This document shows, in pieces, positions 2,342 to 21,766 of a stretch of 64,000 nt of DNA. How positions within the stretch are numbered: position 1 is the first letter of the stretch; the number at the start of each line of letters is the position of its first letter. The notes below the pieces were generated by a model. That model saw nothing but the letters and a program-made list of their open reading frames with translations, did not search any database and was not told the DNA's origin. The translations under genes and the position numbers were made by a program. Source of the stretch: Candidatus Bathyarchaeia archaeon (GTDB lineage Archaea; Thermoproteota; Bathyarchaeia; Bathyarchaeales; Bathycorpusculaceae); NCBI GenBank assembly GCA_049515895.1, contig JBEKTQ010000007.1, positions 110,819 to 174,818 on the forward strand, written 5' to 3'.

Positions 2342-2425
2342 ATGTCAAATAACGTGTTGAAAAAAGAAAACGTTGCCTCATGGTTCCAGAGCTTCGACTA
2401 CTTTTATTATAGTTATTTTCCTTAA
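2342..2425 (+). CDS. putative aromatic amino acid leader peptide MSNNVLKKENVASWFQSFDYFYYSYFP
   Basis: 27-aa ORF; 9 of the last 14 codons are Trp/Phe/Tyr; directly upstream of aro operon. Confidence 0.8.
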   Translation: MSNNVLKKENVASWFQSFDYFYYSYFP

Positions 2426-18948: not shown

Positions 18949-19461
18949 TTATTCGTCTATTCTTACTGATTTTGTTCCTCTTGCTAGCGCTGTTATGCCT
19001 GTTCTGGCAAGTTCAATGACGCCTGTTGCCTTCATCAAGTTTAGGAAGGCGTCAAGCTTGTCAGGTGTTCCGGTGATTTCCACGGTTAGGCTGTCAGTTG
19101 AAACGTCAATTATTCGTCCTCGGAAGACTTCTACACAGTTAATGATGTCGGAGCGATCTTTCGCAGTTGGAGAGTTAACCTTTATCAAAGCTAGCTCGCG
19201 CATTACATAGTTTCCAGGCTCCAGTTCCTCGACTTTAAGCACATCGACGAGTTTTGCGACTTGTTTGACGACTTGGACGATTGTTTTTTCATCCTCATTA
19301 ACTGTTATGGTCATACGCGCGATGTCTTTCCTCTCGCTCGGGCCGACAGTGATGCTTTCAATGTTAAAGTTTCTGCGTCGGAACAAGTTTGAAACTCCGA
19401 AGAGCACACCTGGCTTGTTTTCGACAAGTACCGAAATTATTTTTGTTCTTCCAGCTTCCAT
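18949..19461 (-). CDS. ilvN: acetolactate synthase small (regulatory) subunit
   Basis: SVLVENKPGVL, RRNFNIESITV, RELALIK, ARTG. Confidence 0.93.
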   Translation of the reverse strand: MEAGRTKIISVLVENKPGVLFGVSNLFRRRNFNIESITVGPSERKDIARMTITVNEDEKTIVQVVKQVAKLVDVLKVEELEPGNYVMRELALIKVNSPTAKDRSDIINCVEVFRGRIIDVSTDSLTVEITGTPDKLDAFLNLMKATGVIELARTGITALARGTKSVRIDE

Positions 19462-21167
19462 TAGTAATCACCTTTCTGTTGGGGTAAACCGCAGCCTGGA
19501 GGCACAAAGGGCACAACGTCCTGCTCCGAGCCTATAGGCACATCGATCACCGTGGTAACATTACTGTTCAATGCTGTCTTAACAGCTTTGTGGAATTCCT
19601 CGATTGATGTTGCCCGCAGTCCTTGCGCTCCGTAAGCTTCCGCCAGCTTAACGAAGTCTGGTGTTCTGCCTAGGTTAACCGCCATGTAGCGTCGTTTGTA
19701 GAGCATTCTTTGCCACTGGGCAACCATTCCTAGTACCGAATTGTTCAGCACTATGACAGTAACCGGAATCTTTTCGGTAACGGAGCAGGCGAGTTCTTGC
19801 TCGCTCATTATGAAGCTGCCGTCGCCCGCTATGTCTACGACTGGTCTGTCTGGGCAAGCGACTTTTGCGCCGATTGCCGCTGGGAAGCCGAAACCCATCG
19901 TTCCTAAGCCTCCTGAACTGATGAACGATCTCGGCTTCAAAGCTTGGAAGTAAAGCGCCGACCACATTTGGTTTTGCCCAACTTCCGTAGTGACTATCGC
20001 GCTTTCAGGAAGAAGGTTCCTTAACTCAGTCAACAATGCCTTCGGCACTATGTCTCTTGGTCTCTCTTTCATCAGTGGACTCAGCTGTTCTTTTGCTTCT
20101 TTAACTCGCTTTGCCCAAGCGTTGCCTTCACCTTTACGCAGTTTTTCGCTTAATGCGGCAAGCAAAAGATTCAGGGCAGCTTTTGCGTCGCCGACTATGG
20201 GTACATCAACCTCAATGTTCTTGCCGATTTCTGCCTCGTCAATGTCTATATGGATTTTTTTAGCTTCATGCGCAAAAGAGTCCAAATTTGCTGTTGCACG
20301 GTCGGAGAATCTTGTTCCGACAGCTAGCAGAACGTCAGCTTCGCACATGAGCCTGTTCGCCGCTGGGTTTCCATGCATTCCTATGCTACCTACCGACAGA
20401 GGGTGACATTCCGGGAACGAGCCTTTACCCATGAATGTTGTAGCGACTGGTGTCATCAGCAGGTCAGACATCCGCATGATTTCGTCTGAAGCGTTCGAGA
20501 TTATGACTCCGCCGCCTGCAAGGATGATCGGACGCTCCGCTTTCGCAAGCAAACTGGCGGCTTCGCTAATCTTGCATAAGTCTATCTCAATCATTGACTT
20601 GTAACCAAAGGCTTCGATCTTGTCAGTTACCTCCACTTCGCCAGTGTCTGACTGCACGTTTTTTGGCAAGTCAATCAGAACCGGTCCCGGTCTACCCGTA
20701 GACGCTATGTAGAACGCCGTGTTAACGATAGTTGGAATCTCTGCAACAGTTCTTGGCTGGAAATTGTACTTAGTGATTGGGGTTGTGATTCCGATTATGT
20801 CGGCTTCTTGGAACGCGTCTCTGCCGATTAAGTATGAAGTGTTTACGCCTGAAGAGGGAACCTGCCCTGTCAATGCTACTATGGGAGAAGAATCCATGTA
20901 TGCGTTCGCTATCCCGGTAACCAAGTTTGTAGCTCCGGGCCCTGAGGTTGCCATGCAAACTCCTACTCGTCCGCTGGCTCTGGCATAGCCTTCGGCTTCA
21001 TGCGCCGCGCATTGTTCGTGCCTGGCAAGGATGTGCCTAATTTTTGCGTTGCCGCACAAAGCGTCATACACAGGAAGGATTGCTCCGCCTAAGATGCCGA
21101 AGATCACGTTCACGTTTTGGCGTTCAAGAGATTCTAGGAGTGCTTTTGCACCAGACATTTTAGTCAT
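19461..21167 (-). CDS. ilvB: acetolactate synthase large subunit
   Basis: RHEQ, TSGPGATN, GTMGFG, GDGSF..N TPP motif. Confidence 0.95.
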   Translation of the reverse strand: MTKMSGAKALLESLERQNVNVIFGILGGAILPVYDALCGNAKIRHILARHEQCAAHEAEGYARASGRVGVCMATSGPGATNLVTGIANAYMDSSPIVALTGQVPSSGVNTSYLIGRDAFQEADIIGITTPITKYNFQPRTVAEIPTIVNTAFYIASTGRPGPVLIDLPKNVQSDTGEVEVTDKIEAFGYKSMIEIDLCKISEAASLLAKAERPIILAGGGVIISNASDEIMRMSDLLMTPVATTFMGKGSFPECHPLSVGSIGMHGNPAANRLMCEADVLLAVGTRFSDRATANLDSFAHEAKKIHIDIDEAEIGKNIEVDVPIVGDAKAALNLLLAALSEKLRKGEGNAWAKRVKEAKEQLSPLMKERPRDIVPKALLTELRNLLPESAIVTTEVGQNQMWSALYFQALKPRSFISSGGLGTMGFGFPAAIGAKVACPDRPVVDIAGDGSFIMSEQELACSVTEKIPVTVIVLNNSVLGMVAQWQRMLYKRRYMAVNLGRTPDFVKLAEAYGAQGLRATSIEEFHKAVKTALNSNVTTVIDVPIGSEQDVVPFVPPGCGLPQQKGDY

Positions 21168-21264
21168 TTTTCATCGTTTTCTCCTTTCAACAAATATTCT
21201 CTCGTCTTGGGAAGAAATGATTGCAAAATTAGATTCAGTTTTTTCAGAGAGGTTCCTGGGAGAA

Positions 21265-21315
21265 TCAAAGAATAAGTACCCGACGATCCCAGCTATTGAG
21301 GTGACGATCCCTCAT
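21265..21315 (-). CDS. putative branched-chain amino acid leader peptide MRDRHLNSWDRRVLIL
   Basis: 16-aa ORF ending GTA CTT ATT CTT TGA (V-L-I-L-stop) 97 nt upstream of ilvB; GAGG upstream of ATG. Confidence 0.7.
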   Translation of the reverse strand: MRDRHLNSWDRRVLIL

Positions 21316-21359
21316 TTTCGTGCCTCTTAAATACCACGTACCTTAAAGGTATCATCCAA

Positions 21360-21378
21360 GTAAACATAAAAAGTTTAC
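21360..21378. promoter_or_regulatory. inverted repeat GTAAAC-N7-GTTTAC straddling a TATA-like TTTTTAT (minus strand)
   Basis: Seen in divergent ilv/cooT promoter region. Confidence 0.4.
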
Positions 21379-21580
21379 GGTGTCCAGCTAATACGCATCG
21401 GAAGTTTACACTATTCCTTTGCAAGTTTAACTTGGTAAATGCAAATAAGAACTTGTTCTCCTTAAGCAGTGTTAAGATTTTTCCAAATGGAATTTCGATA
21501 TGCAGAAAAAACCCCGGAAATAATTAACTGAAAGAAAGGTCTTATTACTGCGAATGCTTTTTTGATTGCTGTGAAACTTT

Positions 21581-21766
21581 ATGTGCGAATTTAACGTCAT
21601 CCTTGATGGGAAAACCCAGTTTAGAGACGTAATTTACGTTAAAGTTGAAGGTGACAACGTCACAGTCAGGAACATTTTGGGCGAATCAAAAGAGTTCAAA
21701 GGCTGCAAAATCCTCGAAGTCGACGTTAATTACACAAGGCTAGTACTCTCCTCCATAAAATCATAA
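21581..21766 (+). CDS. CooT-family nickel-binding protein
   Basis: MCE start, 61 aa, beta-rich ILGE...KI.EVD pattern. Confidence 0.75.
   Translation: MCEFNVILDGKTQFRDVIYVKVEGDNVTVRNILGESKEFKGCKILEVDVNYTRLVLSSIKS

Follow-up and report, generated by a model that had tools for sequence, protein, structure and literature searches.

A conserved small open reading frame upstream of ilvB in Bathyarchaeia: a candidate charged-tRNA-sensing +1 frameshift leader

Within a 64,000-nucleotide stretch of a Candidatus Bathyarchaeia archaeon genome (assembly GCA_049515895.1, contig JBEKTQ010000007.1, positions 110,819 to 174,818 of the forward strand; here called the window), a leader with a small open reading frame (ORF) lies on the minus strand ahead of ilvB, ilvN, leuC, leuD, leuB, leuA, and pheA, in this order by NCBIfam assignment. 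Judged from sequence comparison, this leader is probably a programmed +1 frameshift leader that senses charged tRNA with a geometry like that of prfB, the gene for release factor 2 (RF2). How archaea sense amino acid supply at individual operons is largely unknown, and programmed +1 frameshifting as a feedback sensor is known for few products, for example, RF2 and antizyme.

Results

A conserved small ORF precedes ilvB

The minus-strand ATG at 21315 opens ATG AGG GAT CGT CAC CTC AAT AGC TGG GAT CGT CGG GTA CTT ATT CTT TGA, a 16-codon ORF whose translation is MRDRHLNSWDRRVLIL* (Table 1). A preliminary description of this DNA had noted such a 16-residue leader ORF before the ilvB-leu operon and had read it as a BCAA (branched-chain amino acid) sensor. 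Comparative alignment bears out the ORF itself: the small ORF, its Shine-Dalgarno (SD) sequence, start codon, and in-frame stop are kept in 55/55 distinct leaders of the genus and its sister genus, collected via IlvB searches and pattern searches (the genus set). The same leader was found in 93 assemblies of Ca. Bathyarchaeia, including metagenome-assembled genomes (MAGs) named Ca. Bathycorpusculum and "Bathy-6," and IlvB proteins of the same species diverge to 78% identity. A BRE/TATA box (ACCGTAAACTTTTTAT; BRE, transcription factor B recognition element) lies ~50 nucleotides (nt) upstream across the genus leaders, with a predicted transcription start site (TSS) ~25 to 28 nt 5' of the small ORF, and the 7-nt spacer between SD and AUG is fixed in length and variable in sequence.

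Two copies of GGGATCGTC, already remarked upon in the preliminary description, lie in the same frame 21 nt apart within the ORF (21311 to 21303 and 21290 to 21282). This 9-mer has only 10 copies in the 3.18-Mb genome, and the paired arrangement occurs at the ilvB locus alone. Codons 1 to 3, 5, 6, and 13 are invariant at the codon level across the 55 leaders (ATG AGG GAT, CAC CTC, GTA), and Leu6 (CUC) and Val13 (GUA) each sit 6 nt after a GGGAU.

The codons after Val13 behave differently. This tail takes 21 forms in the 55 leaders (LIL in 20, then QLF, QIL, HFY, PRN, and others), with small-ORF lengths of 15, 16, 19, or 23 codons, and a BCAA tail is absent from the leaders of other families. 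The terminal Val-Leu-Ile-Leu run, which the preliminary description had proposed as the sensor, is therefore not the conserved element. Its broader idea of translation-coupled BCAA sensing survives in part: a sensing ORF is still the best reading, with cognate Leu6 and Val13 in 55/55 leaders, whereas the sensor element and mechanism it offered were wrong or incomplete. The tail is U/C-rich and almost free of G, and BCAA codons make up 63% of it, versus 24% in the proteome background and 31% expected from composition; these extra codons may add shift or pause sites. A back-up frame-0 stop follows at nt 69 to 71 in 54/55 leaders (UAA in 32, UGA in 22).

Table 1. Features of the ilvB leader region, in window coordinates
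Feature	Position	Strand	Evidence or remark
BRE/TATA box of leader promoter, CCGTAAACTTTTTATG	21365..21380	-	TTTTTAT invariant, flanks nearly so (23 genus leaders)
Small-ORF SD AAGAGG, 7 nt 5' of AUG	21323..21328	-	Core kept across leaders
Frame-0 small ORF MRDRHLNSWDRRVLIL plus UGA stop	21265..21315	-	In 55/55 leaders
+1 frame, 46 sense codons (GIVTSIAGIVGY...VERRKR) plus UGA, without own start codon	21171..21311	-	Translation; open in 54/54
Module 1 GGGAU, SD-like, 3 nt (one codon) 5' of predicted P-site codon CAC	21307..21311	-	Invariant
Candidate sensor codon 1, Leu6 CUC, predicted A-site codon of shift site 1	21298..21300	-	CUC in 55/55 genus leaders
Module 2 GGGAU, second repeat copy, same frame	21286..21290	-	Sequence and genus conservation
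Candidate sensor codon 2, Val13 GUA	21277..21279	-	GUA in 55/55
Variable tail, codons 14 to 16, Leu-Ile-Leu here	21268..21276	-	21 distinct tails in genus
CCCAG, partner of module 2 CUGGG (21292-21288)	21256..21260	-	Pair 71-99 covariation
CCUCU, complement of small-ORF SD (AGAGG)	21248..21252	-	95.6% of cells paired, little covariation
Back-up frame-0 stop UGA inside CCUCUGAA box	21244..21246	-	Stop here in 54/55
GACGA box, partner of repeat 1 UCGUC (21307-21303)	21202..21206	-	Pair 53-160 covariation
ilvB SD core GGAG	21181..21184	-	Conserved; predicted paired above shuffles
UGA closing +1 frame, 3 nt 5' of ilvB ATG1	21171..21173	-	Overlaps AUG (21174-21172) of MKND* mini-ORF
ilvB, acetolactate synthase large subunit	19461..21167	-	NCBIfam TIGR00118, 743 bits; first gene of ilvBN-leuCDBA-pheA

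A stop-free +1 frame connects the small ORF with the ilvB start

Between the end of the small ORF and ilvB, 54 genus leaders hold 157 stops in frame 0, 5 in frame +1, and 99 in frame +2. The five +1 stops, in 1,704 codons versus 128 expected, are all located at the ilvB start; relative to the small ORF, the +1 frame is stop-free from nt 4 to that start in 54/54 leaders. The chance of a stop-free +1 spacer is ~0.09 per sequence, and the frame stays open over ~145 to 160 nt in spite of indels. Its 5' limit is the UGA of A-UGA at the small-ORF start (nt 1 to 3). ATG, GTG, and TTG are absent from it in 37/55 leaders and, in the remainder, are scattered and lack an SD. The base after the Val13 GUA is always C or U in the 55 leaders, so that UAA and UAG are avoided in the +1 frame. 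In the window, the complete +1 translation (21311 to 21171) is GIVTSIAGIVGYLFFDSPRNLSEKTESNFAIISSQDERIFVERRKR*. Regulatory +1 frameshifting of the prfB and antizyme type shows this arrangement as well: over a short ORF that has a start codon runs a long +1 ORF that has none and that selection keeps open.

At the 3' end, the +1 stop falls between -9 and +5 nt from the first ilvB ATG (ATG1) in 52/54 leaders and forms an AUGA or UUGA stop/start overlap in 36/54. ilvB itself has two conserved in-frame AUGs (M-T-K-M-S-G-A) at 21167 and 21158. The ilvB SD (GGAG) is spaced too far from either AUG for normal spacing; in the genus alignment, the codon that it serves best is the AUG/UUG overlapping the +1-frame UGA (21158 to 21174). 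Such spacing is consistent with termination-reinitiation as the main entry to ilvB. The preliminary description had also drawn attention to a mini-ORF, MKND*, over the ilvB start. It is present at 21174 to 21160, but it is not conserved (3 species) and was rejected as a second sensor ORF; its AUG is there because it overlaps the conserved UGA that closes the +1 frame.

Across the alignments, both frames bear evolutionary marks of translation. For frame 0, these include SD variants (GAGG, GGUG) at a fixed distance, AUG, GUG, and UUG starts, the UAA/UGA exchange at the back-up stop, and synonymous CGA/CGG/CGC at Arg8 of the leuC leaders described below. Because the stop-free +1 frame, which had escaped the preliminary description, joins the small ORF to the ilvB start, the data point to frameshifting rather than simple stalling.

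Related leaders precede other amino acid genes of the order

The pattern SD-N6-9-RTGAGGGAT was detected in 204/301 genomes of the order (65/98 genera), far above a reversed-pattern control. Class-level matches in other orders fall inside genes and were set aside as chance. Across the order, the small ORF starts with AUG, GUG, or UUG and its stop is always in frame; other leader classes use GGAGG or GGUG as SD, that is, different parts of the anti-SD complement. The downstream genes include ilvB, synthases of the leuA/cimA type, leuC, leuS (encoding leucyl-tRNA synthetase, LeuRS), and hisG (Table 2).

Table 2. Leader classes of the order (family labels are ours)
Downstream gene	Families	Example leaders	Leaders counted for stops	Stops in frame 0/+1/+2	Open frame
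ilvB	f1, f4, f5, f7, f10, f11, f12	VRDSRVRRNRFLRK*, VRDHFLVH*, MRDRFL*	18 (other families)	44/0/31	+1; UGA just before second ilvB AUG
leuA/cimA-type synthase	f7	MRDHWVLEGHKMGDRFIH*, MRDRFI*	8 (leuA)	22/0/25	+1 frame is the enzyme frame
leuC	f7	MRDRFLxR*	8	39/1/16	+1 stop A-UGA overlaps leuC AUG in 8/8
leuS (LeuRS)	f1, f2, f3, f6, f7, f9	MRDRFLSRA*, MRDCFL*	10		LeuRS is encoded in +1 in 10/10, with no stop back to nt 4
hisG	f1, f5, f7, f11	VRDxVH(K/R)RRL...	9 (full length)	31/20/0	+2 frame is the open one

Throughout, the module has the form xGG-(G/A)AU-NNN-NNN-[codon]. Its last codon before ilv and leu genes is CUC, CUU, or CUA (Leu), GUA or GUU (Val), or AUC or AUU (Ile), and in ~150 leaders the cognate-codon rule holds without exception: Leu or Val before ilvB, Val or Ile before leuA, Leu before leuC and leuS, and His before hisG. 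The codon is CUC in 8/8 leuC and 10/10 leuS leaders and CAU or CAC in 26/26 hisG leaders. By this comparison, the candidate sensor codon matches the product of the downstream gene in every gene class. In minimal leaders (MRDRFL*, MRDRFI*), the one cognate codon stands next to the stop. In every module the distance from GGGAU to the predicted P-site codon is exactly one codon. The amino acid specified by xGG is R, W, or G depending on the module, but the GG is retained, so GGGAU is constrained at the nucleotide level and not at the protein level. The 3' end of this genome's own 16S rRNA reads ...GGAUCACCUCCU, to which GAGG-GAUC is complementary with one bulge.

At seven of the eight leuA loci (2-isopropylmalate/citramalate synthase; L039, L040, L042, L043, L046, L049, L060, and L105), the enzyme frame contains no ATG, GTG, or TTG before the catalytic DTTLRDGEQ. 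Lacking a start codon, this enzyme can only be made by recoding, and gene callers would truncate it at a downstream Met. The 10 leuS loci come from six families (L289, L304, L314, L318, L324, L325, L327, L328, L329, and L333), and their LeuRS identity was confirmed; L333 has ACG at the usual LeuRS start, where the other loci have AUG. In the leuC leaders L041 to L058, inspection by eye gave an apparent covariation between the small-ORF SD region and a downstream GCCUCU box, with long-range helix variants GAGGCUA:UAGCCUC versus GAGGUUGU:ACAGCCUC, and a conserved GGATAAATTTATTAGG box ~27 nt before the leuC AUG.

The hisG leader

In this genome, hisG lies on another contig, outside the window (C2:152064-152696), and is preceded, 166 nt upstream, by MRDCVHSRRLRSLRAIQTV* (~152862-152806, minus strand). 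The leader contains the direct repeat GAUUGCGUUCAU twice, with the second copy in the +1 frame and UAA directly after it, and no stop interrupts its +2 frame until 10 nt beyond the hisG AUG. The design is kept in 26 genomes of four families: all 26 leaders place a second GUU-CAY copy in +1, and 24 of them have a +1 stop 0 to 2 codons after it. Among the nine full-length leaders, the +2 frame ends 5 to 11 nt past the start in six and 3 nt before it in one, and has no stop by start +11 in two. As read from these frames, a ribosome would have to step +1 twice in succession before reaching hisG, both times at a His codon that has an exit stop of its own, which suggests a two-step frameshift leader specific for His. 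Within this genome the module is limited to the ilvB and hisG leaders, and a dispersed motif, or regulon of DNA sites, was rejected on that ground.

Proposed mechanism

The shift site of prfB has the layout AGGGGG-UAU-CUU-UGA. The layout GGGAU-NNN-[P codon]-[sensor codon] matches it, and we therefore propose programmed +1 frameshifting at ilvB. A ribosome would initiate on the frame-0 small ORF (SD AAGAGG, AUG 21315) and meet, one codon 5' of the P-site codon, a GGGAU followed by the sensor, first as GGGAU-CGU-CAC-CUC (Leu6) and then as GGGAU-CGU-CGG-GUA (Val13). With cognate charged tRNA plentiful, it would keep frame 0 and stop at codon 17 (back-up at nt 69), ~100 nt short of ilvB, and the ilvB ribosome-binding site would remain folded. 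When Leu-tRNA or Val-tRNA is scarce, the A site would be empty and the ribosome could move +1, aided by pairing of GGGAU with the 16S rRNA 3' end. Having shifted, it would read the whole +1 frame, melt the leader structure, and end at the UGA at 21173 to 21171 beside the ilvB AUG, where re-initiation would turn on ilvBN-leuCDBA. In the leuA and leuS versions, the shifted ribosome would continue straight into the enzyme. The location of the shift at the sensor codon, its triggering by tRNA scarcity, and the subsequent re-initiation are what we infer from this layout. Trans-frame products at this locus are predicted to join MRDRH to SIAGIVGYLFFDSPR or ...DRR to YLFFDSPR.

More tentatively, and with slightly less than even confidence, we extend this proposal to an order-wide regulon (ilvBN-leuCDBA, leuA/cimA, leuCD, leuS, and hisG) run on one modular device, in which a single codon behind a prfB-like SD mimic would set the specificity of a charged-tRNA-sensing +1 frameshift leader and the framing of the modules would set its logic. 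If so, the ilvB leader, whose two modules share a frame, would act as an OR gate for Leu or Val; the hisG leader, whose two modules occupy successive frames and have their own exit stops, would act as an AND or cooperative gate for His-His; and direct fusion to the enzyme would amount to RF2-style autoregulation of LeuRS.

Several points weigh against the proposed regulated frameshifting. The case is computational throughout, and the leader TSS is a prediction from the TATA box. The P-site codons CAC, CGG, UUC, and GUU re-pair poorly in +1 (1 to 2 of 3 pairs), which leaves a slippage-free, Ty3-like shift as the one that would fit; pairing of GGGAU with the anti-SD needs a one-base bulge; and folding of single leader sequences was no better than that of shuffles (z = 0.34). 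At leuS, the small ORF is followed by a BRE/TATA-like AAAACnTTTAATA positioned exactly 25 nt upstream of the LeuRS AUG; this is the distance of a leaderless mRNA, and a second, frameshift-independent route of expression therefore probably exists. A similar TATA-like box is perhaps present between the small ORF and the gene at the leuC loci. CUC accounts for 14% of Leu codons and GUA for 19% of Val codons, so that the sensor codons are not rare, and rarity as the cause of the invariant CUC and GUA finds no support. Lastly, the shift could be constitutive rather than regulated.

Alternative explanations

This last point is the core of the alternative that survives best, which we nevertheless hold to be unlikely: obligatory, unregulated recoding, in which a +1 shift or noncanonical +1 entry at a fixed rate serves just to bring ribosomes to the main start, with any regulation exerted by other means. 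An open +1 frame shows translation, not regulation; at the leuA loci and one leuS locus, which have no other start, some shifting must always occur; and sensor codons that are not rare agree with this explanation. It leaves unexplained, however, why codon 6 specifies the amino acid of the downstream gene (Leu/Val/Ile or His), why the hisG leaders have two His codons in successive frames, each with an exit stop, and what conserves the short frame-0 exit and the second stop behind it.

The remaining alternatives turn in part on RNA structure. The preliminary description had listed competing complementary segments (CUGGG/CCCAG, UCGUC/GACGA, and UUUCUUC/GGAGAAA) and suggested control through accessibility of the ilvB SD. 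All three pairs of segments are present. Covariation was judged on the 55-sequence alignment. CUGGG:CCCAG is upheld by one compensatory pair (71-99: G-C in 41, G-U in 7, A-U in 5), and a competing local hairpin with the same 5' arm, UAGCUGG:UCGGGUA, is favored by other substitutions. For the GACGA box, the covarying partner is repeat 1 and not, as the preliminary description had it, UCGUCGGG of repeat 2: UCGUC of repeat 1 pairs with the box ~105 nt downstream (pair 53-160: C-G in 39, U-A in 9), the double changes were reached by 0/500 shuffles, and pairing with repeat 2 was discarded with mismatches in 14 sequences. AGAGG:CCUCU is paired in 95.6% of cells and nearly invariant, and the leader contains a conserved hairpin, UGAGG-N8-CCUCA. 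The suggestion about the ilvB SD agrees with its mean predicted pairing of 0.70 versus 0.43 in shuffles (folds of the 3' segment alone). RNAalifold on 23 sequences found no compensatory pairs because the block is invariant. In these models, the compensatory pairings and the SD pairing broadly fit a folded "off" state; a "kissing loop" between the hairpin loop and the GACGA box is a conjecture, since the box is not consistently single stranded in the folds.

These structures would suit classical leader-peptide control without a frameshift, in which a ribosome stalled at BCAA codons refolds the RNA and thereby frees the ilvB SD or prevents termination. So would the translated small ORF with its invariant cognate codons and BCAA-enriched tail, the alternative pairings with some covariation, and the tendency of the ilvB SD to be paired. 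We nonetheless consider this explanation distinctly improbable. A stop-free +1 frame of ~145 to 160 nt in 54/54 leaders, and in every other class, has no place in it, and it leaves leuA without any route to translation. Minimal versions with a single cognate codon before the stop fit it poorly, and, as the preliminary description had anticipated for U-tracts, the leader strand has neither a conserved terminator-like site nor, in the alignments, a conserved U-run.

Still less probable, in our estimation, is a role of the leader as a structured RNA, with a protein, a metabolite, or (as in a T-box) a tRNA for its ligand and an incidental small ORF. A 40-nt block is invariant at the nucleotide level with no synonymous change, the UGAGG-N8-CCUCA hairpin is accompanied by a long-range covarying pair, and the fixed codon choice (CUC, AUC, CAC) recalls the specifier codons of T-boxes. 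Against this, Rfam gave no match at the gathering threshold in the whole window and, in the leader up to an E value of 10, only a spurious long noncoding RNA match (E = 8); Leu-type and His-type leaders have only the start region in common and no common fold; and the SD, start, and stop signatures, like the lack of stops in one particular frame, are characteristic of translation. Finally, we give almost no credence to a DNA operator, in which a transcription factor such as an Lrp-type amino acid sensor would bind the GGGATCGTC repeats and the palindrome TGAGG-N8-CCTCA, which occurs once in the genome and lies 3' of the conserved TATA box. In its favor, the inverted repeat is invariant, the direct repeats are spaced 21 bp, and the leuS-locus element lies just upstream of the TATA box that is exactly 25 nt from the leuS AUG. 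Against it, the element here is ~+25 to +75 downstream of a conserved promoter, the covariation of the box involves just one repeat, SD-like sequences that vary by class all match the anti-SD, and there is one motif locus per regulon member. G-U-type changes are tolerated on the sense strand only, and this, with the frame signatures that an operator would not explain, speaks for the level of RNA and translation.

Other features of the window

The window contains another leader, which the preliminary description had grouped with the one at ilvB as product-matched. This aromatic-codon leader, MSNNVLKKENVASWFQSFDYFYYSYFP* (2342 to 2425, plus strand), lies upstream of an aspartokinase-like gene at 2482; a hairpin of 10 bp (GCCCAGAACU...AGUUCUGGGC), whose loop contains a U8 run, comes after it. 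It is of the classic codon-run design, does not begin with MRD, and has no open shifted frame; the grouping is thus not upheld, and a shared frameshift mechanism was rejected for want of the frame signature. Divergent from the ilvB leader promoter region, a 61-residue ORF (MCEFNVILDG..., 21581 to 21766, plus strand) presumably resembles small nickel-binding proteins of the CooT type.

Discussion

If the proposed charged-tRNA-sensing frameshift leader is correct, nature would here be seen for the first time to sense a nutrient by "hungry codon" frameshifting, and Archaea would have their first described cis-regulator that responds to amino acids. A 2016 review knew of no natural starvation-induced frameshift that yields a useful product (PMC5009743), and a 2021 review listed a single experimentally reported archaeal frameshift, a -1 case (PMC8211752). 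Our literature search found no archaeal leader peptide, T-box, or amino acid riboswitch for these pathways and no earlier description of frameshift control that senses charged tRNA. The device would be a compact, sequence-defined, and re-targetable sensor with its specificity set by one codon. It would also explain why leuA and leuS in these MAGs seem start-less or are mis-called by gene finders, and the question could be put to a direct test with reporters and with metaproteomes already available from peat, soil, and termite gut.

Among known systems, the bacterial attenuators (ivbL/ilvL, leuL, hisL, and pheM) share with these leaders a short translated 5' ORF that carries codons for the operon's own amino acid and a readout by the ribosome through tRNA charging; as in pheM-pheST, the regulon covers a synthetase gene in addition to biosynthetic operons. 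The leaders described here differ in that each module has a single invariant cognate codon where the attenuators have a long run, in lacking a terminator/antiterminator pair and a U-tract, and in an output that would run via a second reading frame and not via RNA refolding alone. Because they have no conserved codon run and no terminator, we place them outside the classical attenuator family.

That slow decoding of a sense codon in the A site can bring about a +1 shift is familiar from Ty3 (GCG_AGU_U), Ty1 (CUU_AGG_C), and Gallant's starvation shifts in Escherichia coli, and, as in Ty3, no re-pairing in the P site would be needed; those cases, however, involve a constitutively rare tRNA or are laboratory phenomena. 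Eukaryotic antizyme likewise provides feedback at the level of a metabolite by a +1 frameshift from a short ORF1 into ORF2, but there the ribosome shifts at a stop codon, polyamines and a 3' pseudoknot act as the stimulators, and the product switched on is a negative regulator instead of a biosynthetic enzyme.

The closest likeness is to prfB. Both have a short frame-0 ORF overlapped by a long, start-less +1 frame, and the predicted layout here, GGGAU-CGU-CAC-CUC, places a putative SD-like element one codon (3 nt) 5' of the P-site codon, as in prfB. The two differ at the sensor, which would be a sense codon read by charged tRNA, whereas in prfB it is a stop codon read by RF2, and at the P-site codon, which in the leaders is not slippery, unlike the CUU_U of prfB, and which on this count keeps them out of the prfB type proper. 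Moreover, in the ilvB, leuC, and hisG versions the shifted frame is a noncoding bridge that ends at the start of the target and not the product itself, the leaders are archaeal while prfB is bacterial, and the his version would need two shifts. In logic, the direct analogue of prfB is the leuS version, where a Leu codon precedes LeuRS in the +1 frame.

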